Shown here: positions 5,340-31,948 of the stretch, piece by piece
Numbering within the stretch: the stretch's first letter is position 1
How the letters are laid out: every line of letters starts with the position of its first letter
From: Ferroglobus placidus DSM 10642
GTDB lineage: Archaea > Halobacteriota > Archaeoglobi > Archaeoglobales > Archaeoglobaceae
Assembly: GCF_000025505.1 (NCBI RefSeq)
Contig: NC_013849.1
Span: 450,001 to 482,000, forward strand
Direction of reading: 5' to 3'
DNA: 32,000 nt
The notes under the pieces: generated by a model
The model's input: only the letters and a program-made list of their open reading frames with translations
The model's database searches: none
What the model was told of the DNA's origin: nothing
Program-made: the position numbers and the translations under genes

Positions 5340-5825
5340 ATGTGGGCCGTCCACGCAGGTCCATGGTGGGAACCAAAGATTCTCAGGGTTTTCAAAAACA
5401 GGGAGGATGCTGAGAAGGGAAGGGTAGTTCTTGCATACGAGCTTGCTCGGAAAAGAGCGATAGATCCCCTCGACGAGATAGGGAGCTGTCTGGACGATCT
5501 CGGAGTGCTTGAGCTCGAAGCGGAAAAACCACCCTCCGATGAGGAGGTGCTGGGCATTCTGAAGGATACCACAACCTCTGCTTTCGAGGAGGGGCTTGCT
5601 GGTGCATTGAATAACATGCGCACCCTGCTCGATGCAGTGGCAGAGCTATACGATCCAGACGCAATTCTGCAGAAGATTGCAGAGGGTGTGAAAAAGTACA
5701 GGGGGAATTCGAAGCACATCCCGATTACCAGCAAAGCTCTCGACGACTTCATTTTTGAGGTTGCAGACGCACTCGGAATTTCGGAGGAAAGGGTGAAGAA
5801 GGTGCTGCTTCCCGCAATTCTGTAG
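5340..5825 (+). CDS. hypothetical acidic protein with conserved C-terminal tail (..GISEERVKKVLLPAIL)
   Basis: ORF with a GTG-ATG start at 5337/5340 after gagggaggg. The C-terminal ~55 aa resemble those of the 10085 and 10552 proteins (DAILQKIAEGVKK / DDILHAVAEGLKA). Ends in the shared tail motif. Confidence 0.7.
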   Translation: MWAVHAGPWWEPKILRVFKNREDAEKGRVVLAYELARKRAIDPLDEIGSCLDDLGVLELEAEKPPSDEEVLGILKDTTTSAFEEGLAGALNNMRTLLDAVAELYDPDAILQKIAEGVKKYRGNSKHIPITSKALDDFIFEVADALGISEERVKKVLLPAIL

Positions 5826-5918
5826 GACTGCTGAGAACTCTTTTCTGAATCGAGAAGGTGTTAGGCTTGTTACTCTGTAGTTGTGTTTTGCGTTTGGATT
5901 TGTTTGGGAGGTGGTAAG

Positions 5919-7325
5919 GTGCACGAGCAAGACATGTTCAAACTACCTCCAAGAGAGAGGGTGAAGAAGGCAAGGGTAAAACTCCTGAGAGAGAAGCCGT
6001 TTTTCGGCTATGCTTTGATGCACATCCCTTTGGTGGCAAAGGATGATCCAAAGCCTAAGGGCCCGAAGATCGTCTACAACCCCGATTTTGTAGAGAAGCT
6101 TGACGACGATGAGCTCCAGGCAGTTCTCTGCCACGAACTGCTCCATTATCTGTTGATGCACACCAAAAGATCAAAGGAGATGCGCAGAAAAGAGAGAGAG
6201 GGGACGCTCAATGAATACGACAGGAGGAGGAACATTGCTGAAGACATTGTGGTGAATGCCCTCCTCACAAAGAATGGATTTAAGCTCCCGGAATCGAAGG
6301 TGATAATCAGCGGTAATGAGATAAAGGTGAGGCAGGGTGCAATTGTTCCTCAGCTTGACTACAGAACCGGCAAACTGGTTGTGAGGATGAGGGATGCAGA
6401 GGGCAAGTTATACGAGATATTTGACCCAGAGCAGAAGTCAGCTGAGGAGGTTTACTGGGAAATAAAGGACTTTGCCGTGGGCGATGATGGTAGCGATGAG
6501 GATGACACAATGTACTTCTCGGATGATGAGAGCTACGACGACAGCGAGGAGAGTAGAAGTAGAAGTGGTGGTGGTAGCAGCAGCAGAGGTGACCGTGGCA
6601 GAAAAGACAGAGAAAGTAAAGGAAAAGGAAAAGGGGAAGTTAAGGATAAAGATAGAAAGGACACGGAAGCTGGGAGTGATGGCGGCAATGACGGCAGTGA
6701 CAGCAGAGTTAAATCTCCCGCACAACTGCTGAGCGAGGCTTACAACTACGCCAAAATGCAGGGCAAGGATCCGGCAGGGTTTGACAGGCTGGTTGAGAAG
6801 GCTTTGAAACCAAAGATCAACTGGAAGGCACTGTTAAGGCAGCACGTATCCAAGATGGTACCCCACGACTACAGCTTCCTCAAGCCGAGCAGGAAGAGCC
6901 CGCCGAACATTATCCTGCCCGGGATTGTTAAGGGAGAGAGCATTGAGGGCATTGTTGCTGTTGATACATCCGGATCGATAAGCGATGAAGAGCTTTCCCA
7001 GTTTTTATCGGAGATAAGATGGATCGCCAGAAACTACCCATCAATCAACATAACGCTTGTGAGCTGCGATGCAGCAATCCATACAGAGGAGCAGATAAGG
7101 AGCAGATACGAGCTTGATAAGTTCAAGCCGAAGGGTGGAGGGGGAACTGACTTCAGACCCGTGTTTGAGCTTGCAGCAAAGAAGAGGGCAAGGCTGGTCA
7201 TATACTTCACAGACGGCTACGGCTCATTCCCCGAGAGAAAGCCAAGATTTTCAACAATCTGGGTTGTGTCCGAGCAGGGAGCTCCGGAATCTCATTTCCC
7301 GTTCGGCAAAGTCATCAAGATGTGA
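5919..7325 (+). CDS. putative metallopeptidase (HExxH) plus VWA-like domain protein, DUF2201-type partner of MoxR ATPase
   Basis: HExxH in LCHELLHYLLMH. The C-terminal VWA-like region has AVDTSGSIS ... GGGGTDF ... IYFTDGYG. A ~75-aa Asp/Ser/Gly/Lys-rich low-complexity insert sits between the domains. GTG 5919 occupies the exact cassette position (gaggtggtaagGTG, 5908-5921). Confidence 0.85.
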   Translation: MHEQDMFKLPPRERVKKARVKLLREKPFFGYALMHIPLVAKDDPKPKGPKIVYNPDFVEKLDDDELQAVLCHELLHYLLMHTKRSKEMRRKEREGTLNEYDRRRNIAEDIVVNALLTKNGFKLPESKVIISGNEIKVRQGAIVPQLDYRTGKLVVRMRDAEGKLYEIFDPEQKSAEEVYWEIKDFAVGDDGSDEDDTMYFSDDESYDDSEESRSRSGGGSSSRGDRGRKDRESKGKGKGEVKDKDRKDTEAGSDGGNDGSDSRVKSPAQLLSEAYNYAKMQGKDPAGFDRLVEKALKPKINWKALLRQHVSKMVPHDYSFLKPSRKSPPNIILPGIVKGESIEGIVAVDTSGSISDEELSQFLSEIRWIARNYPSINITLVSCDAAIHTEEQIRSRYELDKFKPKGGGGTDFRPVFELAAKKRARLVIYFTDGYGSFPERKPRFSTIWVVSEQGAPESHFPFGKVIKM

Positions 7326-7331
7326 GGTACC

Positions 7332-7886
7332 ATGACAGACTGGGTTCAATTCTCATTAAAAATGCTGGAGAGAACCTGGAAAGAGAACTACAAAAGAATC
7401 TCAGTCACATGGGTCTACGAGTCTGCAGTCCCGGACGAGATCGGAAAAATAACGTACGTAGAGATATGTGAAAGAGAGATAAACAGCCAAAAAGACCTTC
7501 AGAGATGGCAAGAGAGGTTGCAGATGTATCCTTTAGAGCTAGTATCTTTTCTTGATGAAAATGAAGATATGAGGAACTTCAAAGATATACTCGACGATCT
7601 GAAGAGATGCGAAAGATTTAGAATTGATGCCTGTATTAAGATTGTCAAAAAAGTCAAAGAAAGGCTGTATCTCGCCACACTACTTGGAGATAGTTATTTG
7701 CTTAAACTGCTCCCTGAAGGCAGAAAACAATTAGTATTTGACGTCTTTCCAGACAGAAAATATCAATGGGTCAGGCTACACTCGGACTCCGAAGACGATA
7801 TCTTCACCGACACAGTTCTTATAAAAGATAAAAGAGAGATGTTATTCGAATGTAGTATCGCTGTTTTTGTAATTTATGTTTATTAA
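7332..7886 (+). CDS. hypothetical protein (184 aa), low-GC block
   Basis: Long ORF with ATG 7 nt after the upstream stop. AT-rich codon usage differs from the flanking genes. No shared tail. Confidence 0.6.
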   Translation: MTDWVQFSLKMLERTWKENYKRISVTWVYESAVPDEIGKITYVEICEREINSQKDLQRWQERLQMYPLELVSFLDENEDMRNFKDILDDLKRCERFRIDACIKIVKKVKERLYLATLLGDSYLLKLLPEGRKQLVFDVFPDRKYQWVRLHSDSEDDIFTDTVLIKDKREMLFECSIAVFVIYVY

Positions 7887-7903
7887 AGAGGAGGTGATGT
7901 GTG

Positions 7904-9030: not shown

Positions 9031-9510
9031 ATGGTAAAGTGCTATGTGTGCTGGAAAAGATTTGGTAGCAATGAAGAGTTCTTCAAACATGCCGTAGAAG
9101 AGCACGGTAGTATAGAGGAAGCCATCTACGAGATAGAGGAGATACGCGGAGAGCCCACCGAAGCCCTTAATGTTCCTGGCTTCATAGAAGCCGAATATGA
9201 CTCAGAGGTTCTGAGAGTCAAGAAGCTGCGAGGTGTTGCAGACAACAGATATTTCATTGACGTACACGACTGCCACGGCAGATTGCATTTCGGAGTTGTC
9301 AAGGATGACTGGAAAAAGATCGGTGATGGTTGGTTTTCTGTCCCAGGACTTCTCTACAGAAAAGACATTGAGAAAGAGCTTGAAAAGATCTGCTGGATGG
9401 TCCTGGAAGATAGAGGTGGAGCAATAAACATCTCGGGGAAGTATTACCTCGACGACGAACACATAGGAAGAATACTCTTCCTCACGGGAGTTTGCGGTTT
9501 AGAGGGATGA
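9031..9510 (+). CDS. C2H2 zinc-finger protein (159 aa)
   Basis: N-terminal CYVCWKRFGSNEEFFKHAVEEH fits C-x2-C-x12-H-x4-H. Start context is gaggtggtgggATG. Confidence 0.65.
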   Translation: MVKCYVCWKRFGSNEEFFKHAVEEHGSIEEAIYEIEEIRGEPTEALNVPGFIEAEYDSEVLRVKKLRGVADNRYFIDVHDCHGRLHFGVVKDDWKKIGDGWFSVPGLLYRKDIEKELEKICWMVLEDRGGAINISGKYYLDDEHIGRILFLTGVCGLEG

Positions 9511-9548
9511 GTGAAGAGGGAAAGAGCATGAATGTTGAGAACTTTTGT

Positions 9549-10040: not shown

Positions 10041-10084
10041 TTTGTTGTGGTTTTGGTGTTTGTTGAAATCTAGAGGTGGTGTGC

Positions 10085-10537
10085 ATGGGGAGTGTGACTA
10101 ATACAGCGATCTGTCCGGTATGCGGGGAGGAGTACTGGTACGATTATGATACAAGAACCGGAACCACCACAAAGCTCTCATCCTGTGCATGCGACCGTGA
10201 GATAGAATGCATGAGAGAATTCATCAGGATGAAAGGGCTAAAGGATGAGTTCAGGGAGTTCATGAGGGAGAGGGAGAAGGAATACTGGCATGACTGGATT
10301 GTTGAGAGGGGTGAAGTGGCGTATGATGTACAGGAGTTTCTTGAATCTCTCAAAGAGCGCATTGAAAGTATACAGGAGTTCCTGGGCACAGACGACATAC
10401 TGCACGCTGTGGCGGAGGGATTGAAGGCGGTGGGATGTGGCCCGCAGGAACTGGATAAGGTCGTGAGGGAGCTTGCAGAACTTCTTGGAGGAAGTGGAGA
10501 GGCGGTCAGGAAAAAGATGCTGGCTGCACTGCTTTAG
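10085..10537 (+). CDS. zinc-ribbon protein with conserved C-terminal module and tail (..AVRKKMLAALL)
   Basis: ATG 10085 follows gaggtggtgtgc. N-terminal CPVCGEEYWYDYD...SSCAC. The C-terminal ~50 aa are paralogous to the next gene. Confidence 0.75.
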   Translation: MGSVTNTAICPVCGEEYWYDYDTRTGTTTKLSSCACDREIECMREFIRMKGLKDEFREFMREREKEYWHDWIVERGEVAYDVQEFLESLKERIESIQEFLGTDDILHAVAEGLKAVGCGPQELDKVVRELAELLGGSGEAVRKKMLAALL

Positions 10538-10551: not shown

Positions 10552-10806
10552 TTGCCAATTCTTCCTCTCCATCCCTTCGCCTTGGGACTCTATGCTGACC
10601 TCTCAGCCTGGCTGAAAAGTGTTGAAGAGCATGTTGACGAGCTCCTTTCTGAAGGAGGCGATGAGTTGCTGGAAATCGTGGCGGAGAGCTTGAAGGAGAC
10701 AGGGTGCGACCCGGAGGAGCTGGATGAAACTGTGAGGGGGCTTGCAGAGCTGCTCGGTGAAAATGAGGAAGTAGTCAGAAGGAAAATCCTTGAGAAGATT
10801 CTGTAG
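10552..10806 (+). CDS. small protein, paralog of the C-terminal module of the upstream gene, with tail (..VVRRKILEKIL)
   Basis: TTG start sits exactly at the cassette position (gggtggtagtTTG, 10542-10554). LEIVAESLKETGCDPEELDETVRGLAELLGENEEVVRRKILEKIL aligns with LHAVAEGLKAVGCGPQELDKVVRELAELLGGSGEAVRKKMLAALL. Confidence 0.7.
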   Translation: MPILPLHPFALGLYADLSAWLKSVEEHVDELLSEGGDELLEIVAESLKETGCDPEELDETVRGLAELLGENEEVVRRKILEKIL

Positions 10807-11892: not shown

Positions 11893-12621
11893 ATGGGGAA
11901 GCTCTCTAAAAAATGCCCAAAATGCGGATCAAAGGAAGTTGTAACCATGCATCCCACCGATGGCAAGGCTGTTGAGGATCTCGAAAGACTGTCTGAAAGC
12001 AGCTACTGGCAGGATCTTGTGTACATACAGTGCAGAAACTGCGGATATTACCTGGACAGCAAAAAACCAGCTCCTGCATCCGCAACATTCTGCAGCGAGT
12101 GCTTCTGCTTCGGTTACACCAAACTGTATCAGGACTTCGTCACCTACAGCGGATTCGATGAGGAGGTTGATAACTCATCAGATCTCGTAAGAGTCTACTG
12201 TCCTGCATGCGATGGTGAGGAGCTGGTAAAGGTTGATCTCAGCACAGAGTTTTCAGAAATTCTGTCTGAGCTTGGTGATCTGGCAGATGAGGAAGGGATT
12301 AGCCTGACACAGAGCATAGAGTGGGCAGATGATGAGAGCACTGCCAGGGAGTACTCAATAGCAGCCCTGATCTTTACCGCTGCAGGGAAGGGCATTATCA
12401 GAACAAAGCACCACACCTCCACACGGCATGTGAATGAAAATACGGAAAAAGCGAGGGAGCTGCTTGAAAAGGCAATAAGGGTGGATGCAAGGGCTGTAAT
12501 TAATGTGGTTAAGCTCCTGTCAAAGACGCGGGCCTGGAGAGATGCGAAGGTGAGGGACGTTGCAGTGTGGGTGGATGCAGTGATCAGAAATCACCCTGAA
12601 GTCCTTGCAGACCTCATGTAA
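11893..12621 (+). CDS. double zinc-ribbon protein, AAGKG family (242 aa)
   Basis: Cys pairs CPKCGSKE...CRNCGYY and CSECFCF...CPACDGEE. The motif YSIAALIFTAAGKG is shared with the 15445 and 29631 proteins. Confidence 0.7.
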   Translation: MGKLSKKCPKCGSKEVVTMHPTDGKAVEDLERLSESSYWQDLVYIQCRNCGYYLDSKKPAPASATFCSECFCFGYTKLYQDFVTYSGFDEEVDNSSDLVRVYCPACDGEELVKVDLSTEFSEILSELGDLADEEGISLTQSIEWADDESTAREYSIAALIFTAAGKGIIRTKHHTSTRHVNENTEKARELLEKAIRVDARAVINVVKLLSKTRAWRDAKVRDVAVWVDAVIRNHPEVLADLM

Positions 12622-12700
12622 ACCTTGACAATGCTTTTATTAATTAAAGAAGGAAGAGAACACGGTTTTTGGATTTTAAGGCAGATAGTTGGGTGAGAAA

Positions 12701-13303
12701 ATGTCATGGGAGACGCTTGTTGTGGGATCTTTAGCCTTCAAATCCGGAACTCCTGAAGAGATCAAGTTACAGATTCTTGAGGAGCTCGAAGAGGTGCTGG
12801 AAACAACGATAGAGTATGATGCAAGGTGGCAGGAGTGGAAATTTGAGGACGTTAACTGGACATCACACGTCTCTGAAGAAAAAATAAGGAAGGTTTACAA
12901 TAAATGGAGGCCTTTCTTCACCAGATTTTCAGTATCGCTGTACTACCTATCTGAAGCAGATTACAGCGAGCACGATGAGGCTGAAGATCAGGATGCAAAG
13001 GCAATTCTGGAGGGAATTGTAGATTCTCTCCTGAGAGGGGAGAATGACGGAGATTTGGGTGAGGAGGAAAATAGCGTGGGCGAGGTGCTCGAACTCCTTA
13101 CAAAGTTTGTGAGGGGGGTGAAGGACAGAGATGTAGTGCGTGAGGTGCTTACACCAAAAATTGACAGAATAGCAGAAGTCATTGCAGAGAGAGGAGGGAT
13201 TGAGAGGGAAAAGATGCCTGTGGTTCTGGAACTTATTGGTGTTCTGGAGGAAATGAACATTCCGGCGGAGGGGCTCAAGAAAACCCTGCTTGAGGCCGCG
13301 TAA
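12701..13303 (+). CDS. hypothetical acidic protein with tail-like C-terminus (..GLKKTLLEAA)
   Basis: Same frame as track ORF 12689..13303. ATG 12701 follows gggtgag. An AT-rich TATA-like stretch, cttttattaattaaag, lies about 55 nt upstream. Confidence 0.65.
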   Translation: MSWETLVVGSLAFKSGTPEEIKLQILEELEEVLETTIEYDARWQEWKFEDVNWTSHVSEEKIRKVYNKWRPFFTRFSVSLYYLSEADYSEHDEAEDQDAKAILEGIVDSLLRGENDGDLGEEENSVGEVLELLTKFVRGVKDRDVVREVLTPKIDRIAEVIAERGGIEREKMPVVLELIGVLEEMNIPAEGLKKTLLEAA

Positions 13304-13338: not shown

Positions 13339-14586
13339 ATGCTAATTTATGAGACTGACAGCATGGCTGTAAGGCAAACCGGAGATATTCTGGAGATAGA
13401 AATTAGGAGAGAGCTTGATGGAGGGGAGTTCCGGCAGCTTTGCGAGGCTGTAGATCTGGCAAGTGGTTTAGATTTCATAAAGCTCAGGTACGGCAGTAGC
13501 GAAACTGGATATATCCTCTCTGTGGAGAACAGGAGGACAAAGTCAGCTGGAGTGATCCTGATTCCGAACAGCCCCGTGCGGATGACAGTTAACCTGAAAA
13601 CCGTTGAAGTTGAGAGCGATCCGGAAATATACGGAAGGTTCACAATGCTCATAAAGAAGTTTGGGAACTACCGCCTGCCCTTGCCCGACGCAATCAGGGT
13701 TGAGGATGCGGGCAGGATTGTGTTCAGAGAGTACCATGGCCCCCTCTTCGACGCAAAACTTTACGAGGCCGTGCTTGATGTTGAGAATGGGGAGATAGAG
13801 TACAGGATACAGGGTAGCGGCAAGGCCCAGCCCCCGTTATCCCCGCTATACGTTGTGAAAGATACTACAAGGAAGGGAAAGAGGTATCTGGTGTTCAAAG
13901 ATGCGCTCCACCCCTTCGACACCGTATATTACAGCATCCTCAGGGATGAAATACGGTATGAGAATGACTACGGCAACAGGGTTGCGGAGTTCTGGAGGAG
14001 AGTGAGGGATGCAGGGTTTAAACTGCTTGGCGCGGACATGCAGGAGAAGGTACTGGAGAAGCTGAAAACAGAGAGCATTGATGACGTGCTTGAGTGGTAC
14101 AAAAAGCAGCATGATAAAATGCATGCTACCCTTAAGAGAAACGAAGAGGTGAGAGAGTTATTTGAGAGACTCATAACTGACTGCTATCTTGAAACCAGCT
14201 CCTGCACAGTTGCAGTTCTTCCAACAGACTACAGAACCATGCTGCTGATCCATGGCAGCGAGTGTGAGGTTCTGGTGAAGGAATATGCAGATGACTGGAC
14301 AAAAAGGAGAGACACATACAAGGTTCTGCGAAGAATTATGGATGGGAGAGTGGAGGATGCAGTAAGAGAGGCTGAGAGCTGCGCCGTAAAACTTGACAGT
14401 ATGGCCGCAGGAGAGAGACTTGTGGAAGAGTTCAAGAGGATCAGGAAAGGACGGTATACTGTGTACTTCATCCATGATGGGAGAATGATGCATGGGTGGG
14501 ATGACAGGCACAAAAAACTGCCCGATCTTCTGCTACCCAAACTCCCGATGTCAATCAGACAGGCCGTGCTGGCTGCCATGCTCTGA
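13339..14586 (+). CDS. hypothetical protein (415 aa) with tail (..SIRQAVLAAML)
   Basis: Long ORF. ATG follows ggaggggaagtgag. No recognisable domain. Confidence 0.7.
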   Translation: MLIYETDSMAVRQTGDILEIEIRRELDGGEFRQLCEAVDLASGLDFIKLRYGSSETGYILSVENRRTKSAGVILIPNSPVRMTVNLKTVEVESDPEIYGRFTMLIKKFGNYRLPLPDAIRVEDAGRIVFREYHGPLFDAKLYEAVLDVENGEIEYRIQGSGKAQPPLSPLYVVKDTTRKGKRYLVFKDALHPFDTVYYSILRDEIRYENDYGNRVAEFWRRVRDAGFKLLGADMQEKVLEKLKTESIDDVLEWYKKQHDKMHATLKRNEEVRELFERLITDCYLETSSCTVAVLPTDYRTMLLIHGSECEVLVKEYADDWTKRRDTYKVLRRIMDGRVEDAVREAESCAVKLDSMAAGERLVEEFKRIRKGRYTVYFIHDGRMMHGWDDRHKKLPDLLLPKLPMSIRQAVLAAML

Positions 14587-14644: not shown

Positions 14645-15298
14645 GTGGTTGGTGTGTTTAGTGCAAACTCCCCCGTGTTTAGCGCAAACCCCTCTCAGAG
14701 AGATTACGTAAAGATCTGCAAACCAGCGTTCTTCTCTAACAGCATACCCGAGAACAACCTGCTTTTCAGCCTCCTCCTGGATGGTAGCAGTGACAGCAGC
14801 AATCATTCAACCGAGAGAGCTGAAGAGTACGGAGAGAGATTCTGGAGGCTTGCGGGAGAGAGGCATACGCTGATCTGCTACGATATTGGAGATCGCTTAA
14901 TCCTGGAACGCGTGGAGGAATGCCACCACGACGACTCAATTCTCGACGAGCTATATGCTGCTGCCAGCATTCTCTCCGAAGCCGGGTTGAAGAGGAAGCA
15001 GGAGTTCTTTGAGAGGATTGGGGGAGAGAAGGTTAGAGAATTTATTGCGAAGCACTCCGACTACTTCATTGAGATCTTTGAATCCGAGGATGACGAGGTT
15101 ATGGGAGTGGCCACGACAATCATCAACTCTCCGGCTCCTGTGCTCTGCCAGCTTCTGCACGTTCTGACGGATGCAGAGGATGGAGAGAAGTGCGAAGCTG
15201 CTGCGAGGGTTGTTTCTGCTCTCGGTGGAGAAAGGCTTGTGGCTGTTCTGGGAAGCGACTTCACGCTGAGGAGAAGACTTCTTCCGTATCTGATCTGA
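14645..15298 (+). CDS. hypothetical protein with tail (..LRRRLLPYLI); start uncertain
   Basis: The ORF has only GTG candidates (14645, 14654) after gaggtgg. Its first ~15 codons are a 21-bp tandem DNA repeat, so the true start may be further downstream. The C-terminal half looks like a normal acidic helical protein. Confidence 0.55.
   Translation: MVGVFSANSPVFSANPSQRDYVKICKPAFFSNSIPENNLLFSLLLDGSSDSSNHSTERAEEYGERFWRLAGERHTLICYDIGDRLILERVEECHHDDSILDELYAAASILSEAGLKRKQEFFERIGGEKVREFIAKHSDYFIEIFESEDDEVMGVATTIINSPAPVLCQLLHVLTDAEDGEKCEAAARVVSALGGERLVAVLGSDFTLRRRLLPYLI
14654..14695. repeat. 21-bp direct tandem repeat x2 (gtgtttagYgcaaac + C-rich spacer)
   Basis: gtgtttagtgcaaac at 14654-14668 and gtgtttagcgcaaac at 14675-14689, each followed by a C-run. 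A TATA-like tttataat at 14623-14630 lies about 25 bp upstream. Confidence 0.7.
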
Positions 15299-15322: not shown

Positions 15323-15457
15323 ATGCTGGTAATGAGCATGCTTAAAGGATTGCACGTCGTGAAGAGCGAGGAGCTAGATTGGCTCACAACTTTTGAGAAT
15401 TATCTGTGGGATCGAGAAGATGAAAAGCCAGGAGTTGAGAGAGGATGTCCGAATTAA
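15323..15457 (+). CDS. possible small ORF (44 aa)
   Basis: ATG is preceded by taggtga. It encodes MLVMSMLKGLHVVKSEELDWLTTFENYLWDREDEKPGVERGCPN and overlaps the next start by 13 nt. It is below the ORF-track size cutoff. Confidence 0.3.
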   Translation: MLVMSMLKGLHVVKSEELDWLTTFENYLWDREDEKPGVERGCPN

Positions 15458-15894
15458 CAGAGGTGCAGTTCTGCAAGAACTGCTTGAGCTGCAGGTATAT
15501 AGTCAGGGGGAGAAGCTGGGAGGGCTATTACGAGTGGGAGCGTCTCGGCTTCATTGATCAGCGCTCGTATGAAGATGGCATGATGGAAGCGGTTTGCAGC
15601 AGGTGTGGTGGTGAAGAGTTCATAGTTGTGTGGACATCGGAGAACATTGAGGGGATTATTGAATCGGCCCTGCAGAGATACCGGTTAGATAGCAAAGACC
15701 ACTTCGAGGATGTTGCTCTTGCAGCGGTTCTCCTGGCCTCTGCAGGAAAAGGAGGGGCAGAGCTACGACAGTACGATTTTCTCAGCGATCTGTGGGTCGG
15801 AGAGGATTTCGAGGATTTTGAAGACCTGCTTTCCAGAGCCCCGAAACAGCAGCTGGAGAGAGCGAAAAGGGCTCTCCTGGGCATTCTCCTGTAA
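15445..15894 (+). CDS. zinc-ribbon protein, AAGKG family, with tail (..AKRALLGILL)
   Basis: CKNCLSC...CSRCGGEEF plus ALAAVLLASAGKG, paralogous to 11893..12621. Confidence 0.7.
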   Translation: MSELTEVQFCKNCLSCRYIVRGRSWEGYYEWERLGFIDQRSYEDGMMEAVCSRCGGEEFIVVWTSENIEGIIESALQRYRLDSKDHFEDVALAAVLLASAGKGGAELRQYDFLSDLWVGEDFEDFEDLLSRAPKQQLERAKRALLGILL

Positions 15895-20882: not shown

Positions 20883-20937
20883 CTTTTTCGGGTTTTTTGC
20901 TGAGTTAGGGGTTCAGTTGGATTTGGAGGTGGTTAGA

Positions 20938-21759
20938 TTGGTCGGATTGATTGTGAAAAAGGTAGAGGATGTGAGAATAGACTGTGCTGAGTGGGAAAAA
21001 TCCTATACAGTCTCCGGCAGAGTGCTTGCAGGTGATGGGGGTGAAACCAGTGAATGGGTGTGGAAGGAGTTTGATGATGCTCTGCACAAGGCCATTGACA
21101 GAATAAACTCCTCCCACCCGTCTCACTTCAGCGGTTACAGCCACTCTCTGGCTGGTAATGTGATCATCACCCTGAACTCTGTCCTCAAAGATCACGAACT
21201 CAGAGTGCTGTCCCGAGAGCTCGGGGCACCGATACGGTTCCGAAAACACTACAGGGCTTCAGGAAACAAGAGTTGGAGGGGCTGGAAGCTGAATGCTGAA
21301 GCATTCATCAGTTTTGCGGCCAGAGGAAATGAAGATACTGCAGAGATCAGCGTTAAATTCTGGGAAGAGTTTTCGACATCTGCCTACGATTACACAATAG
21401 AGCCGCAGATCCACGTGAGGAACTTCTACCGCACAATCACCCGGGAAAGAGCAGCGGACTACATGAAGGATCTGGAGAGGCTGAAACTCCTGAACAAAGC
21501 CGAATTCAAGGAGTGTGAGGTCATAGCTGTCACAAAAAAGAGTGGAAGGTATCTGGTTCTCAAGGAGCTTTTCGAGGACAGCAATGACAGGCTGTACATC
21601 TTCAGAGTTGAGGGAAGAGTAGGAAAGGTGGGAGCCAGGTACTACGTGGATGTTGCAGGAAAAACGCTATGGACTCCGGGCAAAAAACTCCTGTCCAGGG
21701 ATTTTGTAGCAGAACCTCCTCTGGAGGTTAAGAAGGAGTTGCTCATGCTTTCTATTTAG
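20938..21759 (+). CDS. hypothetical protein (273 aa) with tail (..EVKKELLMLSI)
   Basis: Same frame as track ORF 20836..21759, but that start overlaps the GHKL gene. TTG 20938 sits at the cassette position (gaggtggttagaTTG, 20926-20940). Confidence 0.65.
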   Translation: MVGLIVKKVEDVRIDCAEWEKSYTVSGRVLAGDGGETSEWVWKEFDDALHKAIDRINSSHPSHFSGYSHSLAGNVIITLNSVLKDHELRVLSRELGAPIRFRKHYRASGNKSWRGWKLNAEAFISFAARGNEDTAEISVKFWEEFSTSAYDYTIEPQIHVRNFYRTITRERAADYMKDLERLKLLNKAEFKECEVIAVTKKSGRYLVLKELFEDSNDRLYIFRVEGRVGKVGARYYVDVAGKTLWTPGKKLLSRDFVAEPPLEVKKELLMLSI

Positions 21760-23763: not shown

Positions 23764-24738
23764 ATGTCTGAGTCCAAATTCTGGTTGATAAGTGGTTTTC
23801 ACGGTAACCGGGATTTTTCGCAGCAGATAGGCGGCCCCGTGATTGATATCCCGCACTGCGATTATTATGCGGTCTATGAGGAGTACACCATGAACTTAAC
23901 AGACCTGTGCAGGCCTGATCCTGATTTAAGCGAGACTGAAGCGGCTGAAATGTTTGCAGAGCTTGCAAACGCTTATCTTGATGAGGTGACTGAGAAGCTG
24001 AAACTTCTCGTAGAATACCTGTACGATGACGTGTTCTTCATTGTGAGTAACCGCGACTATCCCAGCATGCTGGTAGTAGATATATATGCTGTAGCTCCCG
24101 TCGAACCAGAAGACTACTTACGACAGGAATACGATTATTTTATAGATGCAGAAACACTTGTCAAGATTGCGAAGGCTTATGACAGGCTGAACAACGAGGA
24201 GGAAGCTATAAAGGCGGTTCTTGGTAACATATCTGAGGAGGAGCTGGAGAGATGGATAGGCTTTGACTGGCAGGACGTGCTGGATGCGGCAGAACGCCAC
24301 GAAAACGCAATGAAGGAGCTCGAAGATTTCAGGAGGAGGTGCAGGGTTGAAAAGGGCTATCTTGTGGATGTGGATGTTACAGGGCTGTACACCCTTCACC
24401 AAGGAGAATACAGGGATGAGAACATTGTTCTGTTCAGACCAAGAGAGGATAGCAGCCTGAGATACATAATGGACAGGAAGACGCTTCGAATCTGGAGCAT
24501 CCAGCACTCTCCTCTTTTTGAACACAGACCGGTTCTGCACCTCTGCAGGTACATTGAGGCCTGTTTGAAGTCAGAGGCAGAGGCAGATGCCGAAAAGGAG
24601 GCCAGGAAAAGAGAGGCGCTTGAGGCTCTCTTCAACTCGCTTGGAGAGCCGATCGATCTCGCAGGACGAGAAGAGCAGTTTGCAGAGTGCCTCATTGGAA
24701 TTGGACTGAAAAAGGAGGCCTTAGCGCTCACGCTGTGA
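23764..24738 (+). CDS. hypothetical acidic protein (324 aa) with tail (..GLKKEALALTL)
   Basis: taggaggggatactATG start. Long ORF with no recognisable domain. Confidence 0.7.
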   Translation: MSESKFWLISGFHGNRDFSQQIGGPVIDIPHCDYYAVYEEYTMNLTDLCRPDPDLSETEAAEMFAELANAYLDEVTEKLKLLVEYLYDDVFFIVSNRDYPSMLVVDIYAVAPVEPEDYLRQEYDYFIDAETLVKIAKAYDRLNNEEEAIKAVLGNISEEELERWIGFDWQDVLDAAERHENAMKELEDFRRRCRVEKGYLVDVDVTGLYTLHQGEYRDENIVLFRPREDSSLRYIMDRKTLRIWSIQHSPLFEHRPVLHLCRYIEACLKSEAEADAEKEARKREALEALFNSLGEPIDLAGREEQFAECLIGIGLKKEALALTL

Positions 24739-24813: not shown

Positions 24814-25449
24814 GTGGGTTATACGGTGGATATTATCGAATGCTCTCTTACTGCAAAATCTGTAGAGGAGGCGAAGAAGATCATCGAAGAGTTCGAGCGA
24901 GAAGGTGTGTTTGAGATCGATGAGGAGGGACACATAAGGCCCACTGACTGGTCTTTCAACTGGAGTAGTGACGAATACCTGTTCTTTGCTGCTTTAAGCA
25001 GGGTTGCAGAAGGATATATAGCGTTCAGAGGAGAGAACGGAGAAATCTGGAAGATTGAGCTGAAAGATGGAGAAATCATAGACTACACTGCAGAAATCGT
25101 TTACAGAAAGACCGGTTCAGCCAGGATCCATGAGGACTTTTTCAAGAAAAAGATGGTGGCCAATGAGAGATATGTTGCTGCTGTAACAGAGTTTGATACG
25201 GTAATTGCATACGACAGGAAACACAGGCAATGGCTGAACATCCGGCTCTACGGATCTCTGGCAGATCTTGAGATTCTTGAGGCCATTATCCGCGGGGAGG
25301 ATCTGAGTTTGCAGAGCGAGGAGCAGTGGAGCACAAAGGCTTGGCTTGACCGCGAAACTATTGAGGAATTTGCCCGAAAAGTTCTGAGCTCAGACATTGA
25401 CCAAAAAATAAAAAATGAGGTAAAGAAGGAATTGCTAACCTTACTTTAG
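24814..25449 (+). CDS. hypothetical protein (211 aa) with tail (..EVKKELLTLL)
   Basis: GTG start follows aaggaggtgggaaa. A GT-rich spacer lies upstream (ctgtttgatttgggtttttgaacttgattt). Confidence 0.7.
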   Translation: MGYTVDIIECSLTAKSVEEAKKIIEEFEREGVFEIDEEGHIRPTDWSFNWSSDEYLFFAALSRVAEGYIAFRGENGEIWKIELKDGEIIDYTAEIVYRKTGSARIHEDFFKKKMVANERYVAAVTEFDTVIAYDRKHRQWLNIRLYGSLADLEILEAIIRGEDLSLQSEEQWSTKAWLDRETIEEFARKVLSSDIDQKIKNEVKKELLTLL

Positions 25450-26787: not shown

Positions 26788-27828
26788 ATGGAGACTGCAG
26801 GCAGGTTGAAAGCAGGGCTCGTGGACAGGAGTAAGAACGCTAGAGGAGGTGAAAGTGAAGGAATAGGTGTGAATGAGAACAGAAAGAGTGGAAGGAGCAA
26901 GAGCGTGAATGATGGTGGGGGATGGAGTGGAGAAGACGGTACATGCCCGGAGTGCGGAAGCCCGAGACTTGTCACGGACCACAGTCGCGGAGAGGTTTTC
27001 TGCCAGGACTGCGGGATTGTTGTTGAAGATGCTCGCCTTGACTACGGCCCGGAGTGGAGGTCATATGACAGTGAGCGTGGAATGCAGAGGGCAAGGGCAG
27101 GGCCTCCAGTTGTGCTCACTCTCCATGACAAGGGGTTTACCACAACAATAGGGAACGATAGAGACAGCCACGGCAATCCACTCTCCCCCAAAACAAGAAT
27201 CCAGTTTACCAGACTGAGAAAGTGGCAGAGCAAAATCAGAACAAACAGCTCTGCAGAGAGGAATCTTGTACGATCACTGATGGAGCTTGAGAGAATCACG
27301 TCTTCCCTTGGGCTGCCTAAAAGCATAACGGAGAGGGCGGCACTCATCTACAGAAGGGTAGTCAGTAATAACCTGACGAGGGGGAGGTGTATAGACAGCA
27401 TTGTTGCCGCTGCAGTGTACGCAGCATGCAGGGAGGCAGGACTGCCGAGGACGCTGGATGAAGTTGCAGCCCACTCCAGTGTGGATAAAAGGTCTGTTGG
27501 AAGAGCGTACAGATTCCTTGCAAGAACGCTCGGGCTGAAGCCTGCTCCAATCACCTCTACAGACTACGTGCCGAAGATCTGCGCAGCACTTGGAGTGAGC
27601 GGGGAGGTGCAGGAGAGGGCTCTGGAAATCGTAAATGAGGCTGAGAAAAGCATGGTTAGCAGAAGTCCAGCAGGTGTGGCTGCGGCTGCAGTTTACATTG
27701 CATCAATCCTGCTTGGAGAGAGGAGAACGCAGAGGGAAGTGGCAGGAGTTGCAGGAGTCACAGAAGTCACGATAAGGAACTGCTACAAGATGATAACTGA
27801 CAGACTGGGAATAGAGCTGCTCCTTTAG
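26788..27828 (+). CDS. tfb: transcription initiation factor B (TFIIB homolog) with ~50-aa Gly/Ser/Asn-rich N-terminal extension
   Basis: Zn-ribbon CPECGSPRLVTDHSRGEVFCQDCGIVVED, B-linker region GPEWRSY, and two cyclin-like repeats (ERAALIYRRVV...SIVAAAVYAACREAGLPRTLDEVA; AGVAAAAVYIASILLGERRTQREVAGVAGVTEVTIRNCYK). ATG 26788 follows aggtggtatat (cassette). Confidence 0.92.
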   Translation: METAGRLKAGLVDRSKNARGGESEGIGVNENRKSGRSKSVNDGGGWSGEDGTCPECGSPRLVTDHSRGEVFCQDCGIVVEDARLDYGPEWRSYDSERGMQRARAGPPVVLTLHDKGFTTTIGNDRDSHGNPLSPKTRIQFTRLRKWQSKIRTNSSAERNLVRSLMELERITSSLGLPKSITERAALIYRRVVSNNLTRGRCIDSIVAAAVYAACREAGLPRTLDEVAAHSSVDKRSVGRAYRFLARTLGLKPAPITSTDYVPKICAALGVSGEVQERALEIVNEAEKSMVSRSPAGVAAAAVYIASILLGERRTQREVAGVAGVTEVTIRNCYKMITDRLGIELLL

Positions 27829-27837: not shown

Positions 27838-28194
27838 ATGTCCGTCCTGAAGGATGTTTTAAGCAGAGAGTCTTGTTCAACTCCCTTTCCTGAACCTGAA
27901 CCCGAGCATGAGCATGGATGTGAGAAGTCTGAGACCGGTGAGAAGTCTGAGACCACTCTCAAATGCCCTTTTTGCGAATACAGAGCTAGCAATCTAGCAA
28001 AACTCAAAAGCCACATCCTGAGGCACGACCTCAGCATCTGCCCTGTGTGCGGTAAGAAGTTCAAGAGATTGCTAAGCCACGTTGCAGGGATGAGGGATGA
28101 AAAGCACCAGGAGCTCTACGCTCTGATAGGGCACTATGGCAAAGGCAACAGAGATCGGTTGAGAGAGCTGAGGGGCAGGTTTCTGGAAAAGTAG
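27838..28194 (+). CDS. C2H2 zinc-finger protein (118 aa)
   Basis: LKCPFCEYRASNLAKLKSHILRH is a classical C2H2 finger, and a second CPVCGKKFKRLLSHVAGMRDEKH follows. The N-terminus has PEPEPEHEH and a tandem EKSETG/EKSETT (18-bp DNA repeat at 27922-27954). Confidence 0.7.
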   Translation: MSVLKDVLSRESCSTPFPEPEPEHEHGCEKSETGEKSETTLKCPFCEYRASNLAKLKSHILRHDLSICPVCGKKFKRLLSHVAGMRDEKHQELYALIGHYGKGNRDRLRELRGRFLEK

Positions 28195-28690: not shown

Positions 28691-29608
28691 ATGAGGGACG
28701 AGTTGGACGAGCTCGTTCACCAGGCTTTCCGTGAGGCATGCAGTGGAGAGGGCTGCAGCATTGAGAAAGGGGATGGCAGGTTCGTGGTCAGGCACGACAC
28801 GGATGTTCTCTCTGTACGCTGGCCGGAAATAGAAATTCTTAACACCGGGCTCAAAACAATGCGCGTTCTCGTGAAAGCATTACACCTGCTGCAGATCCGC
28901 TGCGAGGGCACCTTGAACTTCCTTCTGAAGCTGTACGACCGTGCAGTCATGCAGTGCCTGCCTGTTGTGGAGGGGGCAGTCATCGACCTGGAAAAGAGGA
29001 GGGCGGAAGTGTCTGGAGGGAAGCAACCTGGTCAGACAGAGCTTGTGGATATGCTGAACAGGCTGAACGATTTTTTCCTGAACGCTGCAGCAAAGTACGG
29101 GCAGATCACCGCAAATACTCTGTACAGCTGCATCCTGGACACACACCTCCTGACAGATCCCGAAGACTTATCATCTCCCATTTCATTTCCCGGCTTCAGA
29201 GACCTGGAGAGCATCATGGCCGCTGCAACAGCAGTTGCGGGGAAGAGGCTGTGGTTTGTGAAGTTTCAGAACAGCATTCTTGCAAAGGTGCTGGCAAAAT
29301 CCCTGCCCCTGCATCCTCTCTCTGAGAGCGCAATGTGCCTCCTCATCACACCAGACGGAGTTTCAAGGCTGGACGTGGCAAAAACACCGCATTATGCAGC
29401 GGCAAATCTTGTCGGAGTGCTCTGGGATGTTGCGCGGAATGAGAGAAGAGTGAAGTACAGCTGGAGGAACGAAAAATCCGCAAAGCTGCTCAAGGAGTTC
29501 ATTGAAAGGGCGAGGACTGTGGAGGTTGCGGGCAGGGATCAGATAATTGGCAGGTTTGTCGAGAGTCTGCCTGAAAAGGCAAGGAAATCACTTCTAACTC
29601 TTATCTGA
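28691..29608 (+). CDS. hypothetical protein (305 aa) with tail (..EKARKSLLTLI)
   Basis: Long ORF with no recognisable domain. Followed by tgaggttttttta. Confidence 0.65.
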   Translation: MRDELDELVHQAFREACSGEGCSIEKGDGRFVVRHDTDVLSVRWPEIEILNTGLKTMRVLVKALHLLQIRCEGTLNFLLKLYDRAVMQCLPVVEGAVIDLEKRRAEVSGGKQPGQTELVDMLNRLNDFFLNAAAKYGQITANTLYSCILDTHLLTDPEDLSSPISFPGFRDLESIMAAATAVAGKRLWFVKFQNSILAKVLAKSLPLHPLSESAMCLLITPDGVSRLDVAKTPHYAAANLVGVLWDVARNERRVKYSWRNEKSAKLLKEFIERARTVEVAGRDQIIGRFVESLPEKARKSLLTLI

Positions 29609-29630: not shown

Positions 29631-30101
29631 ATGGAGGTGGCAGGATTGAGAACGGTTGTAGCTGAATTCTGCGCGGAGTGTCTGGAGTCAACCCTGAAAC
29701 AGTCTTTTTTCACGGATGAGAAGGAGTGCAGCGAGTGCCTGTCCAAAGTTTACTTCAAAGCCCGCATTCCGCAGGAAATAGCTGAGGAGATCCGGAGACT
29801 TCATGACTTGCACCAGCTTGAATACGGCCCGCTCACAATTCTTTACGCTGCAGCCGGACTGGTGAGGCTTGAGTACGCCGATGCAGAGCCAGAGCCAATG
29901 AGTGAGGAGGAGGTTCTTGAGAGGATAGAGGAAGGGATAAGAGGTGTAGAGGGATATGCGTATGACATACGTAACTTTGTCGATATCATAGAGGTTATAG
30001 AGCATGCAGAGTCCGAAGCAAAAATAGATAAGGACAGGCTCAGAAAACTCCTGAAAGTTGTTCAGAGACTGAAGAAGGTTGTTCTGGCGGAGATATTGTA
30101 A
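29631..30101 (+). CDS. zinc-ribbon protein related to the AAGKG family, with tail (..RLKKVVLAEIL)
   Basis: CAECLES...CSECLSK, then LTILYAAAGLVRLEY. The start is ATG 29631, or in-frame TTG 29646, which sits at the cassette position (gaggtggcaggaTTG). Confidence 0.65.
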   Translation: MEVAGLRTVVAEFCAECLESTLKQSFFTDEKECSECLSKVYFKARIPQEIAEEIRRLHDLHQLEYGPLTILYAAAGLVRLEYADAEPEPMSEEEVLERIEEGIRGVEGYAYDIRNFVDIIEVIEHAESEAKIDKDRLRKLLKVVQRLKKVVLAEIL

Positions 30102-30144
30102 TTTGGTTTTTGTAGTTTTTTGTTCTGCTCGGGAGTGAGTGAGC

Positions 30145-30594
30145 ATGCGCTGTGCTGAGGTGATAAAAGAGGCTGAAGAAGGCAACACTGAAGTGGTGCT
30201 GGAGCTGGAAGACATCTTCGAATCTTCGAATTTGTCTCATGAATTTGACAGAAAAGTCCAGGAGAACATCGAATACATTTTGAGGAGGAATTGCCTGTGG
30301 AGGGAGGGGCTGAGGACTGCTGTCCTAATCTGCAAAATCGCTCCAGACCCTGATGACACATTTTTTGGATATTTTCAGGTCTTTGATGGTACCGAGCTCG
30401 TTGCGAGAGGAGAGTTCGGCGGCACATTCGTCGTTCTGGACGAGAGAGCTTTTGAGAAACCGGATGTGGAGGGCATCGAGATCGTAGAGCTAACAATTTC
30501 GCTGCCACCGGTGGATGCAAAAAAGCTCTTTCTCCTTGACATCTCTGATCTGGGTGCTGAAGAAAAAGCTAAGCTTCTCTCCTGGGTTTTGTAG
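30145..30594 (+). CDS. hypothetical acidic protein (149 aa) with tail (..EEKAKLLSWVL)
   Basis: Same frame as track ORF 30139..30594. ATG 30145 follows gggagtgagtgagc. A GT-rich spacer lies upstream. Confidence 0.65.
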   Translation: MRCAEVIKEAEEGNTEVVLELEDIFESSNLSHEFDRKVQENIEYILRRNCLWREGLRTAVLICKIAPDPDDTFFGYFQVFDGTELVARGEFGGTFVVLDERAFEKPDVEGIEIVELTISLPPVDAKKLFLLDISDLGAEEKAKLLSWVL

Positions 30595-30621
30595 TTTTTG
30601 GTTTTTTCTCGGGGTGAGATT

Positions 30622-31383
30622 ATGAGTGTGAGCGCGGGTATGAGCGAGAGTGTGAGTGTGGTGGAAAGGATGATGGATAAGCTTCAGCTGCTGAATGATC
30701 TCTGGAAAAGGGTTAAAGTGCTGCCAGAAATCACAGAACTCGCCAATAAAGTAGTGATAGCTGAATTCGGTGTTGAGGAACACTCATCCCCCTTCAGTTA
30801 CGCAGGATATAATATAAGGGCAATTCTGGATGATGTGAGGAAAGAGTTGTTCAGATTTGTTGCAGATCTGCTTGTTGAGGACACGAATGTCAGAGTGGAC
30901 TTCGCTGACCTGTATGACCGCTTTAAAGACTTCGATGCGGTAGAGGTGGCCAGATACATTGAGGAGAAGTACCTTCGCCAGGCAGATGAGCTGGCATACA
31001 GAGAAATCGTAAGCAGGGCAAGAGCTCTTCTGCCGGCACATAATGTAAGCCTGGAGAAGATCCTGAAAGGGAGAAAACTTGTCCTGCAGTACTACCTTCA
31101 CTGGAGTTACGGAAAACCATACATACACGACTTTCTTGAGGCCGCATCAGCCCTCGAAAAGCTGGCAAAGATCGTTCTCTGGAGAGTTAAGCCATCCACA
31201 GCCAGGGGGCACGCAATTTACAACGCATACTGGAACGACACAACTGATGAGGAGGTTTTGCAGAAGAAGGAGCTTGGCGGCCCGATCGAGGCTGTGAAGG
31301 TACACAAGAACGGGAACATCTACTTCTGGTTTAAGAGCGAGGAGGATGCAAAAAAGGTTGCGGAGGTGCTCCTGAGTGAGTGA
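30622..31383 (+). CDS. hypothetical protein (253 aa) with tail-like end (..DAKKVAEVLLSE)
   Basis: Same frame as track ORF 30598..31383. ATG 30622 follows ggggtgagatt. No recognisable domain. Confidence 0.65.
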   Translation: MSVSAGMSESVSVVERMMDKLQLLNDLWKRVKVLPEITELANKVVIAEFGVEEHSSPFSYAGYNIRAILDDVRKELFRFVADLLVEDTNVRVDFADLYDRFKDFDAVEVARYIEEKYLRQADELAYREIVSRARALLPAHNVSLEKILKGRKLVLQYYLHWSYGKPYIHDFLEAASALEKLAKIVLWRVKPSTARGHAIYNAYWNDTTDEEVLQKKELGGPIEAVKVHKNGNIYFWFKSEEDAKKVAEVLLSE

Positions 31384-31567
31384 ACCTGAACCTGAATATG
31401 AATTTGAGGCCATGTGGCGAAGGGAGATGCAGGAGTGGTCAAAGATTATCGAGGAGCTGGATAAAAGGTCGTTCGAGCAGGTAATAACAATAAATTCCGG
31501 AATCATCAAAGAACTGGTCTCACACTCCACAAAAATTAAAAAGCGGTTGATAGAAGTAGTACTGTAG
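31376..31567 (+). CDS. small acidic protein (63 aa) with tail (..KIKKRLIEVVL)
   Basis: GTG 31376 lies 7 nt after ggaggtg (31362-31368) and overlaps the upstream stop (GTGAGTGA). ATG 31412 is an alternative start. Confidence 0.55.
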   Translation: MSEPEPEYEFEAMWRREMQEWSKIIEELDKRSFEQVITINSGIIKELVSHSTKIKKRLIEVVL

Positions 31568-31594
31568 ATTTAACACAATTCGAGGTGTTTTTCC

Positions 31595-31948
31595 ATGACA
31601 GCTGTGCCATCTGGTGCCGCAGCTGCAGCCGCTGGGGGGGCGGCAGCAAGAGCAGCAGCAAGTGCGCAGAAGTTCACTTTTGGCTTTCTCATCTTTGAGC
31701 CTGAGGAATTTCTGAAGCTCGTGAAAACTGCAAGAGAAACAGATGGCAGGGCAGTCGTCATTCTTGTAAAAAAACGAAAGGGAGTGGTTAACAGAAAAGA
31801 TGAGTACATCTACGCCGCCAAATACGCTGATTTCACAATCCTGACCAGAAGCGAAACACCTCTAGCACTGCCGTCAAAAACCGAGCTGATTGTGAGCAGA
31901 GACATAGTACTGCCGGTAGCAGTCATGCACGCTTTGAAGATGCTTTGA
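31595..31948 (+). CDS. hypothetical protein (117 aa), Ala-rich N-terminus, weak tail (..VMHALKML)
   Basis: ORF with start context gaggtgtttttccATG. N-terminal SGAAAAAAGGAAARAAASA is low complexity. Confidence 0.55.
   Translation: MTAVPSGAAAAAAGGAAARAAASAQKFTFGFLIFEPEEFLKLVKTARETDGRAVVILVKKRKGVVNRKDEYIYAAKYADFTILTRSETPLALPSKTELIVSRDIVLPVAVMHALKML

Follow-up and report, generated by a model that had tools for sequence, protein, structure and literature searches.

That otherwise unrelated proteins can be addressed to one place by a shared terminal peptide is a principle already known, which underlies microcompartments, encapsulins, secretion and the filling of phage heads. The cargo-loading peptides of encapsulins have a Gly/Ser-rich, extended C-terminal consensus; the capsid-targeting sequence of phage T4 comprises ~10 residues at the N-terminus and is cleaved by a dedicated prohead protease; and soluble ATPases such as MinD and FtsA bear at the C-terminus a basic-hydrophobic helix of 8-12 residues, which targets them to the membrane. 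In the MoxR-VWA pairs, an AAA+ ATPase of MoxR type is associated with a VWA adaptor, which bears a metal-ion-dependent adhesion site (MIDAS) and brings the clients. RavA-ViaA is a chaperone pair of this kind, as are CbbQ-CbbO and p618/p892 of the Acidianus two-tailed virus, the latter from an archaeal virus, and the clients of such pairs are mostly unknown. To our knowledge, no shared client tag has been described for any MoxR system, nor has such a tag been described for a MoxR-VWA machine or for an archaeal mobile element. Here we analyse a stretch of 32,000 nucleotides (hereafter the window) from the cultivated hyperthermophile Ferroglobus placidus DSM 10642, in which about 20 genes of what we treat as an integrated mobile element encode proteins ending in the same short hydrophobic tail. 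The window comprises bases 450,001-482,000 of a single contig of 2,196,266 bp with 44.1% G+C, as in the published F. placidus AEDII12DO genome (2,196,266 bp, 44.1% G+C; PMC3236036). Genes were called with a codon-usage caller, which yielded 2,496 genes genome-wide, the published annotation having 2,567.

The preliminary description of this DNA had quoted 18 C-termini and regarded 15 of them as clear tails; all 18 translate as written, with the starts of the open reading frames (ORFs) differing only by the choice of start codon, and the 15 tails lie at the positions assigned to them. The strict motif proposed at that time does express a shared consensus, but fails as a rule, a single gene in the whole genome matching it. 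The looser motif [KR][KR]x0-2[LIVMA][LIVM]x1-3[LIVMA][LIVMA]-COOH is found in 11 of the 42 genes at 5-32 kb of the window as against 5 of the 2,454 elsewhere in the genome, so that the comparison with the host proteome reveals an enrichment specific to the locus, and four simpler patterns gave odds ratios of 20-61 (p 1e-11 to 1e-18). Since tail patterns occur in the host proteome about as frequently at the terminus as internally (terminal/internal ratio 0.9-2), the tail is not a habit of the genome. Within the proteins of the island itself, the motif is encountered at 0.0025 per internal position and in 11/50 termini, being thus some 90-fold rarer internally. A non-circular test employed a 9-position matrix trained on the complete, unselected set of 43 genes from related elements of other genomes, and by this measure 12 of 50 window genes exceed the 99th percentile of the remaining genome.

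The preliminary description had further proposed that selection acts on the peptide rather than on the DNA, and the codon data bear this out. When the tails are compared pair by pair over their last 9 codons, identities of 0.43, 0.53 and 0.31 are obtained for codon positions 1, 2 and 3, against 0.31, 0.31 and 0.28 in an upstream control, and the Leu at position -5 (counted from the C-terminus) is written with five different codons. The likeness thus resides in the first and second codon positions and not in the third, which argues for selection on the peptide. Causes at the level of DNA, including a hairpin of the type AAGAAG...CTTCTT, a promoter or terminator lying in the tail, and a repeated 3' cassette, are ruled out because no excess identity is seen at third codon positions or past the stop, and because of the five Leu codons at -5.

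Relatives of the GHKL ATPase and of the DUF2201 protein encoded in the window were found exclusively in Archaeoglobales genomes and hydrothermal metagenomes, where six diverged element types (A-F) can be distinguished, with tails on many genes in every type. Examples are LLKLILAERI, GLLTLAVLI, IERLVLAVLV, LEAELLANLI and RLQLFCDIL in type B, KSEILASLL, REEALLLLL and RSEMLALLF in type C, and ARKKLVGVLI, IKKILLKHAV and VKRIAVAALI in type F. Across the six types the presence or absence of the tail is a stable trait of the gene family: it is present in 5/5 members of the GHKL family, 4/4 of the 24814 family (families being named here by gene start in the window), 3/3 each of the 29631 and 23764 families and 2/2 of the 28691 family, and in 0/8 DUF2201 proteins and 0/3 each of the 2258, 30598 and 21782 families. 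Conservation in relatives, another expectation of the preliminary description, is thus observed, orthologues at 30-55% identity keeping the tail while the residues before it drift. In five relatives, 35/72 genes located within 10 kb downstream of the DUF2201 gene are tailed compared with 17/105 elsewhere at the same loci, counts which are not independent, as the related loci are not phylogenetically independent. The GHKL family provides the clearest instance. Its full-length relatives are all tailed (KKIALSTLL, GLLTLAVLI, AKELALSFL, VKRIAVAALI, GPKLLAILI, NTKMLVNLL), and in their alignment (25-59% identity) Leu(-5) is the sole invariant column in the last 60 residues; in one relative the last 110 residues are unalignable, and the protein nevertheless ends in NTKMLVNLL. 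Among distant GHKL proteins having the N-domain alone in common, such ends occur in 1/93.

The carriers in the window, all on the + strand, are the following; four of them (MoxR1, VWA1, 4883-5317 and 11893-12621) come in addition to the original 15, and all four are confirmed by orthologues.

1..657, +, MoxR1, the 3' part of a RavA-like MoxR ATPase gene starting 518 nt before the window (AAA_lid_8, E 4e-20); ends SMLDKMF-COOH, as does its type-B orthologue (79% identity)
755..2164, +, VWA1, a ViaA-like VWA protein (VWA_2, VWA_CoxE; NCBIfam ViaA E 5e-21, below the cut-off); ends AIFQRLV-COOH, orthologues AIFQKLV and EIFLKLL
4883..5317, +, protein of 144 amino acids (aa); ends KSVWEEII-COOH, orthologues SVWGNLI and EIWSDMI
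5337..5825, +, KKVLLPAIL; paralogue of 10076-10537 and 10552-10806
10076..10537, +, RKKMLAALL
10552..10806, +, 84 aa, RRKILEKIL
11893..12621, +, HPEVLADLM; orthologues (40-43% identity) end HPELLANCI, one orthologue being truncated
12689..13303, +, KKTLLEAA; type-F homologue ends LRKLLLMHAL
13339..14586, +, orphan of 415 aa, RQAVLAAML; a word-indexed homologue search returned only itself
14645..15298, +, RRRLLPYLI
15445..15894, +, KRALLGILL
18345..20882, +, GHKL ATPase of 845 aa (HATPase_c_3), KKLALAALL
20836..21759, +, KKELLMLSI (start uncertain, 20836 or 20938); orthologue (36% identity) ends VRKKILELLV
23764..24738, +, KKEALALTL; orthologues end YRKEALTLAL and CRKEALILAL
24814..25449, +, KKELLTLL; family in 4 element types, orthologues (31-37%) ending KKEIVLELI, KTVTVSLL and EKKILAGTI
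28691..29608, +, RKSLLTLI; type-F homologue ends ARKKLVGVLI
29631..30101, +, KKVVLAEIL; homologues end LKEVILAELL and IKKILLKHAV
30139..30594, +, KAKLLSWVL
31376..31567, +, 63 aa, KKRLIEVVL; homologue ends KARLLRTLIS

Of the sequences originally held to be weaker cases, 11893-12621 has thus turned out to be a true carrier, and another, on the + strand at 30598..31383, is a non-carrier: the stretch KKVAEVLLSE is internal in its orthologue (49% identity), which continues ...VAEVLIYGRQKWRK past the motif-like residues, and the family is untailed in 3/3 members. The GHKL ATPase is, as recognised from the beginning, among the carriers. The further statement that the carriers mostly share no other similarity needs a qualification for 5337-5825, 10076-10537 and 10552-10806, which have in common a C-terminal domain of ~70 aa (BLASTP E 1e-16, 4e-6), such that the 15 tails represent ~13 independent families. 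The remaining carriers show no mutual similarity by BLASTP or by an iterated hidden Markov model (HMM) of the last 45 residues. A hidden C-terminal domain common to all was considered and rejected, since this iterated HMM recruits no carrier beyond its four seeds. Comparison of the tailed proteins with Pfam, PHROGs, PADLOC and NCBIfam gave nothing beyond the GHKL domain, the MoxR and VWA proteins apart. Likewise, a fold search with the model of the 24814 protein produced no convincing match (best Foldseek E 0.05; best VIA-align Z 6.1, over a ferredoxin-like N-domain), and the ESM Atlas returned no usable match.

In 14 of the original 15 tails Leu occupies -5, and in 14 Leu or Ile occupies -1; positions -2 and -6 are mostly hydrophobic, -4 is often small, and Lys or Arg is present at -8 in 13/15 and at -9 in 12/15, the residue preceding the tail usually being Pro, Gly, Ser or Asp. 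In types B, C and D, neutral or acidic residues occur where the basic pair sits, with Glu right before the hydrophobic core. The dibasic pair, formerly taken for part of the core of the motif, is therefore lineage-specific, and the universal core is hydrophobic(-6), Leu(-5), small(-4), x, hydrophobic(-2), L/I/V(-1)-COOH. In the AlphaFold2 model of the 24814-25449 protein (mean predicted local distance difference test score 76), the tail lies in a terminal helix, residues 197-210, which follows the helix 180-191 after a short turn. The carriers are mostly acidic and soluble and contain no hydrophobic stretch of 19 residues, in keeping with the earlier view that the tail is too short to span a membrane. 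A selected peptide that is conserved in orthologues and sits on soluble proteins, most of them non-homologous, is most naturally read as a tag for common docking or sorting.

The question then is which protein could read such a tag. The preliminary description had nominated the two MoxR/VWA modules and the GHKL ATPase as candidate receptors. Since the GHKL ATPase, MoxR1 and VWA1 are themselves tailed, they look like clients and not like receptors; MoxR1 and VWA1 moreover occur as a pair in element types A and B only. The candidate that is left lies in the second module:

3603..4871, +, MoxR2, a MoxR-type AAA+ ATPase beside the DUF2201 gene (AAA_5, E 7e-7); ends DLVYYTI
5883..7325, +, DUF2201 protein, candidate receptor or processing enzyme, in which an HExxH metallopeptidase-like domain at the N-terminus is followed by an acidic linker and by a VWA domain bearing the MIDAS sequence DTSGS (DUF2201_N E 7e-31, DUF2201 E 4e-29)

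DUF2201 is the sole family represented in all 6 element types and is untailed in 8/8 cases. Its residues H84, H88, H93, D361, T362, S363 and S365 are invariant and E85 nearly so; the C-terminal domain has the integrin-I/VWA fold (Foldseek probability 1.0), and the HExxH region gives a weak match (E 0.004) with the minigluzincin MJ1213. The MoxR2 family is present in 5/6 element types, the contig of the sixth being short. Beyond the Archaeoglobales, DUF2201 proteins, often beside an AAA+ ATPase, are found in 778 phage records, for example at 9425-10573 in the Thermus phage phiFa; jumbo phages of Pseudomonas, Bacillus phage G and cyanophages are among them, and several of the proteins are misannotated as HNH endonuclease.

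As the likeliest of the readings considered, though as a possibility rather than an expectation, we tentatively propose that the tail is a protein-docking tag served by the MoxR2-DUF2201 pair. What is observed is that the tag exists, is selected at the level of the peptide, is stable within families and always accompanies DUF2201; that it binds any protein, which protein this would be and what consequences would follow, we infer. On this proposal the tail would act as a short linear motif for docking, namely a terminal helix, capped and ~9-14 residues long, whose face is made of positions -6/-5/-2/-1 and which ends at the free carboxylate; within one module of an Archaeoglobales mobile element it would direct ~40% of the proteins to a shared partner. 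The hydrophobic face of the tail could dock into a groove of DUF2201, the terminal carboxylate could then ligate either the zinc of the peptidase or the metal of the MIDAS, the basic residues at -8/-9, where present, might contact the acidic linker, and the ATPase would finally remodel, load or release the client. Docking to a protein is favoured by the exact anchoring at the carboxylate and by one conserved helix face with a nearly invariant Leu, as well as by the maintenance of the same core under acidic and basic flanks and of tail status within families over long divergence. The C-terminal anchoring together with Leu(-5), L/I(-1) and the frequently small residue at -4 speaks for stereospecific recognition over bulk hydrophobicity. 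DUF2201, together with MoxR2, is the best candidate for the reader, and both of its own metal sites are of kinds known to accept a C-terminal carboxylate; in complement factor B, for example, the MIDAS metal is ligated by the C-terminal carboxylate of C3b. The linker of DUF2201 contains a strongly acidic run in the five types having basic tail residues and not in type B, the tails of which lack such residues.

Several observations weigh against assigning this role to the pair. The covariation of charge between linker and tail amounts to a single contrast between two clades and is weak evidence, and no tool has shown binding; a complex prediction for DUF2201, host PCNA and residues 145-211 of the 24814 protein gave a score of 0.00, to which we attach no weight in either direction. 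Distant chromosomal MoxR-DUF2201 pairs in Archaeoglobales have no tailed neighbours, and the vicinity of the AAA+/DUF2201 pair of phage phiFa is not enriched in tails (2/28), indicating that the pair has no general need of them. In type B, MoxR2 itself is tailed, ending in LIKLIRFLL. Finally, a receptor provided by the host explains the data equally well.

If true, the proposal would provide the first candidate client tag of a MoxR-VWA system, and of any MoxR system, and the first tag of the kind in a mobile element of archaea; it would also help to approach what the AAA+/DUF2201 pair does in hundreds of phage genomes. With ~20 clients, a defined tag of 6-9 residues, a conserved candidate reader and a cultivated host at this locus, the targets of phage and archaeal MoxR/VWA/DUF2201 modules become directly testable. 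The tail is also a sequence signature by which this family of elements can be recognised, its tagged proteins, the GHKL and MoxR/VWA proteins excepted, being otherwise without annotation, and a short heat-stable tag might find use in archaeal protein targeting. In a more ambitious form, one could imagine an Archaeoglobales family of viruses or plasmids with a sorting system of its own, in which a MoxR AAA+ ATPase together with a metallopeptidase-VWA adaptor would recognise the tag, and ~20 proteins would be gathered, loaded or matured into one assembly such as a particle, vesicle or factory; this we regard as rather unlikely.

The architecture of the locus is that of a MoxR-VWA machine, with AAA_5 and AAA_lid_8 ATPases encoded beside VWA_2 and DUF2201 proteins and a conserved DTSGS, except that the DUF2201 adaptor has an additional metallopeptidase domain. 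With the T4 capsid-targeting sequence the tail shares its shortness, its occurrence on unrelated proteins of a mobile element and the presence of a putative element-encoded protease, but it is C-terminal and no capsid genes were found. The tails also differ from the cargo peptides of encapsulins in being Leu-rich helices; the genome contains a single Linocin_M18 match, at 1,955 kb, which lies ~1.5 Mb away from the island and is not adjacent to the tailed genes. A further parallel is with the encapsulation peptides of bacterial microcompartments (BMCs; PduP, PduD, EutC, CcmN), which are short terminal helices with a hydrophobic-pair-x-x-hydrophobic-pair pattern and serve several unrelated proteins encoded at one locus as a shared address (PMC4594438, PMC11157265). 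Several proteins of our locus likewise bear a short amphipathic terminal helix, though some tails have a low hydrophobic moment; unlike the BMC peptides, however, the tails are found in an archaeal host, are strictly C-terminal at the carboxylate, are shorter and lack a long flexible linker, and the clients include AAA+ and GHKL ATPases instead of metabolic enzymes. The shell domain PF00936 has 0 matches in the genome, control genomes being matched. In the minigluzincin zymogens proabylysin and projannalysin (MJ1213), a hydrophobic C-terminal tail occupies the HExxH cleft, and in proabylysin the last residue of this tail, V105, is on the zinc (PMC5557861), a likeness which is of relevance given the weak match of the DUF2201 N-domain to MJ1213. 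In these zymogens, however, the peptidase is kept latent by a tail of its own, whereas here the tails are borne by ~20 other proteins and DUF2201 is untailed. No type IV secretion coupling protein or VirB4-type ATPase was detected in Pfam scans of ~70 proteins covering part of the island, the only comparable machinery in these scans being the pilus-like T2SSE/T2SSF set, and a literature search found no description of the island or the motif. The tail fails the defining features of each known targeting-peptide family that could be tested.

Among the explanations that dispense with a dedicated reader, one is that the tail, like that of MinD or FtsA, is a helix dipping into the cytoplasmic membrane, which would gather soluble proteins at a site of replication, assembly, pilus or vesicle formation. 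No receptor would be required; the carriers are soluble, mostly acidic and free of transmembrane segments, several of them are oligomerising ATPases and could gain avidity, a type-IV-pilus-like membrane machine is encoded in the island, and the net charge of the last 12 residues is positive in types A, E and F (+0.9, +1.2 and +2.3), as in the tails of MinD. In the other half of the element types this charge is however negative (B, C and D: -1.0, -1.9 and -0.7), with Glu before the hydrophobic core. The hydrophobic moment ranges from 0.35 to 1.7, many tails being uniformly apolar (0.35-0.7) and not amphipathic, aromatic residues are rare (0-8%), and Leu(-5) and the exact terminal register are conserved more tightly than lipid binding predicts, all of which departs from the MinD/FtsA pattern and makes membrane targeting an unlikely, if serious, contender. 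Co-assembly, in which the tails would bind a shell, a scaffold or one another and so enter one particle, condensate, virion or vesicle, with DUF2201 perhaps acting as maturation protease, follows the logic of encapsulation peptides, where terminal helices with paired hydrophobic residues are likewise carried by unrelated proteins of one locus (PMC4594438, PMC12339742). It would accord with a tag found alike on enzymes and on proteins of no known family, with the invariable presence of the metallopeptidase and with the virus- or plasmid-like appearance of the island, a raised-GC array on one strand with its own TFIIB and RNase H and, in type F, a Holliday-junction resolvase. We consider it quite unlikely, since besides the lack of a BMC shell gene and the remoteness of the host encapsulin, neither Pfam nor PHROGs identified a capsid, portal or terminase among the proteins scanned, a search of IMG/VR with the GHKL profile returned no relative, and the tail is joined to the preceding helix by a short turn and not by a long flexible linker.

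A degron, gripped either by a host AAA+ unfoldase (PAN-proteasome, Lon or Cdc48) or by MoxR and DUF2201 acting as a split AAA+ protease, would render the tagged proteins short-lived or processed. The apolar, Ala/Leu-rich termini with their free carboxylate are indeed ssrA-like, LALAALL, MLAALL, VLAAML and LLEAA resembling the ssrA end YALAA, and the clients always have genes for an AAA+ ATPase and a Zn peptidase as neighbours; moreover, archaeal PAN binds and unfolds ssrA-tagged green fluorescent protein with a dissociation constant of ~4 uM (PMC5244417). But within the module the AAA+ ATPases and the VWA protein are themselves tailed, the host proteome does not avoid such ends (terminal/internal ratio ~1), and the instability of 40% of the element proteins over six lineages is hard to explain, so that this explanation appears improbable. 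That the tails have no shared function at all, being merely the last helices of helical C-domains, alike through convergence or through descent from a 3' cassette shuffled long ago, could be argued from the longer helix-turn-helix C-domain shared by four carriers and from the model in which the tail forms the second helix of a hairpin. It is made very improbable by the 25- to 130-fold enrichment over the host proteome and over internal positions, by the lack of domain-level similarity beyond the tail in the other carriers, and by the retention of the tail in orthologues in which the preceding residues have drifted, including the GHKL relative with its unalignable C-terminal 110 residues. Scarcely credible, finally, is the loading of all these proteins on the host sliding clamp by PCNA-interacting peptides (PIPs) of the form K/R/Q(-8), x, x, L(-5), x, x, hydrophobic(-2), hydrophobic(-1)-COOH. 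The C-terminal PIP boxes of the host (QITLDRWF in a protein of 336 aa, QKTLDAFW in one of 786 aa, QVKISEFF in one of 1,142 aa) share both register and terminal position with the tails, and that of 13339-14586 reads QAVLAAML. However, while these host peptides fit the consensus Q-x-x-[LIM]-x-x-[FWY]-[FWYL], the tails do not: Gln is at -8 in 1/15 only, the 15 tails have no aromatic residue at the two plug positions -2 and -1, where all host PIPs have these as well as Asp/Glu at -4, types B, C and D lack even a polar residue at -8, and twenty clamp clients including MoxR and VWA proteins would be implausible.

The window lies inside the largest raised-GC stretch of the genome (~390-510 kb, 47-52% G+C), within which fall 9/12 of the 10-kb windows having a G+C of at least 0.475. 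We treat this island as a mobile element that has integrated, or as several such elements combined, and its borders as unsettled: attachment repeats were not found, and no integrase match lies inside it, the nearest being at 371 kb. Nearly all of its genes are on the same strand. The tailed set reaches past the window, as the top matrix score in the genome belongs to the C-terminus, KACLLAETL, of a 166-aa protein encoded at genome position 484484-484984, 2.5 kb beyond it. The island further encodes an RNase H, a DsbA-like thioredoxin, an Ig-repeat protein of 1,665 aa (nine Big_7 repeats), and a type-IV-pilus-like set consisting of a 1,028-aa T2SSE ATPase-helix-turn-helix fusion, T2SSF and pilins. 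Two further genes lie next to each other in the window:

26779-27828, an island-borne paralogue of TFIIB, homologues of which recur in element types C and E
27838-28194, a C2H2 zinc-finger protein, following the TFIIB gene

The sole minus-strand gene of the window (25522-26652) encodes a protein with an archaeal type-IV pilin N-terminus, a Big_7 Ig domain and Cys/His/Asp-rich repeats at the C-terminus; a paralogue, with a lamin-tail domain, is encoded just past the window, also on the minus strand (genome 482257-483318).

The low-GC blocks of the window contain no tailed genes, as noted already in the preliminary description. The untailed protein 7332-7886 in the first of these blocks is a homologue of five tailed type-C paralogues (31% identity over ~105 residues), so the blocks are not wholly foreign to the element, and the tail seems to have been lost there. 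A 48-aa ORF at 23555-23701 ends in RKLILEKS, which is the tail motif with the last two hydrophobic residues replaced and may be either a decayed tail or a product of chance. Runs of 5-7 T, which are probably archaeal terminators, follow the stops at 10806, 15894, 20882, 29608, 30101 and 30594 at a distance of 1-45 nt, suggesting that the genes are transcribed in many short units and not as one long operon. As to the host clamp, F. placidus has one PCNA gene only, and several Archaeoglobales genomes contain 1-2 extra, diverged copies (35-63% identity to the main copy), which are possibly borne on mobile elements.

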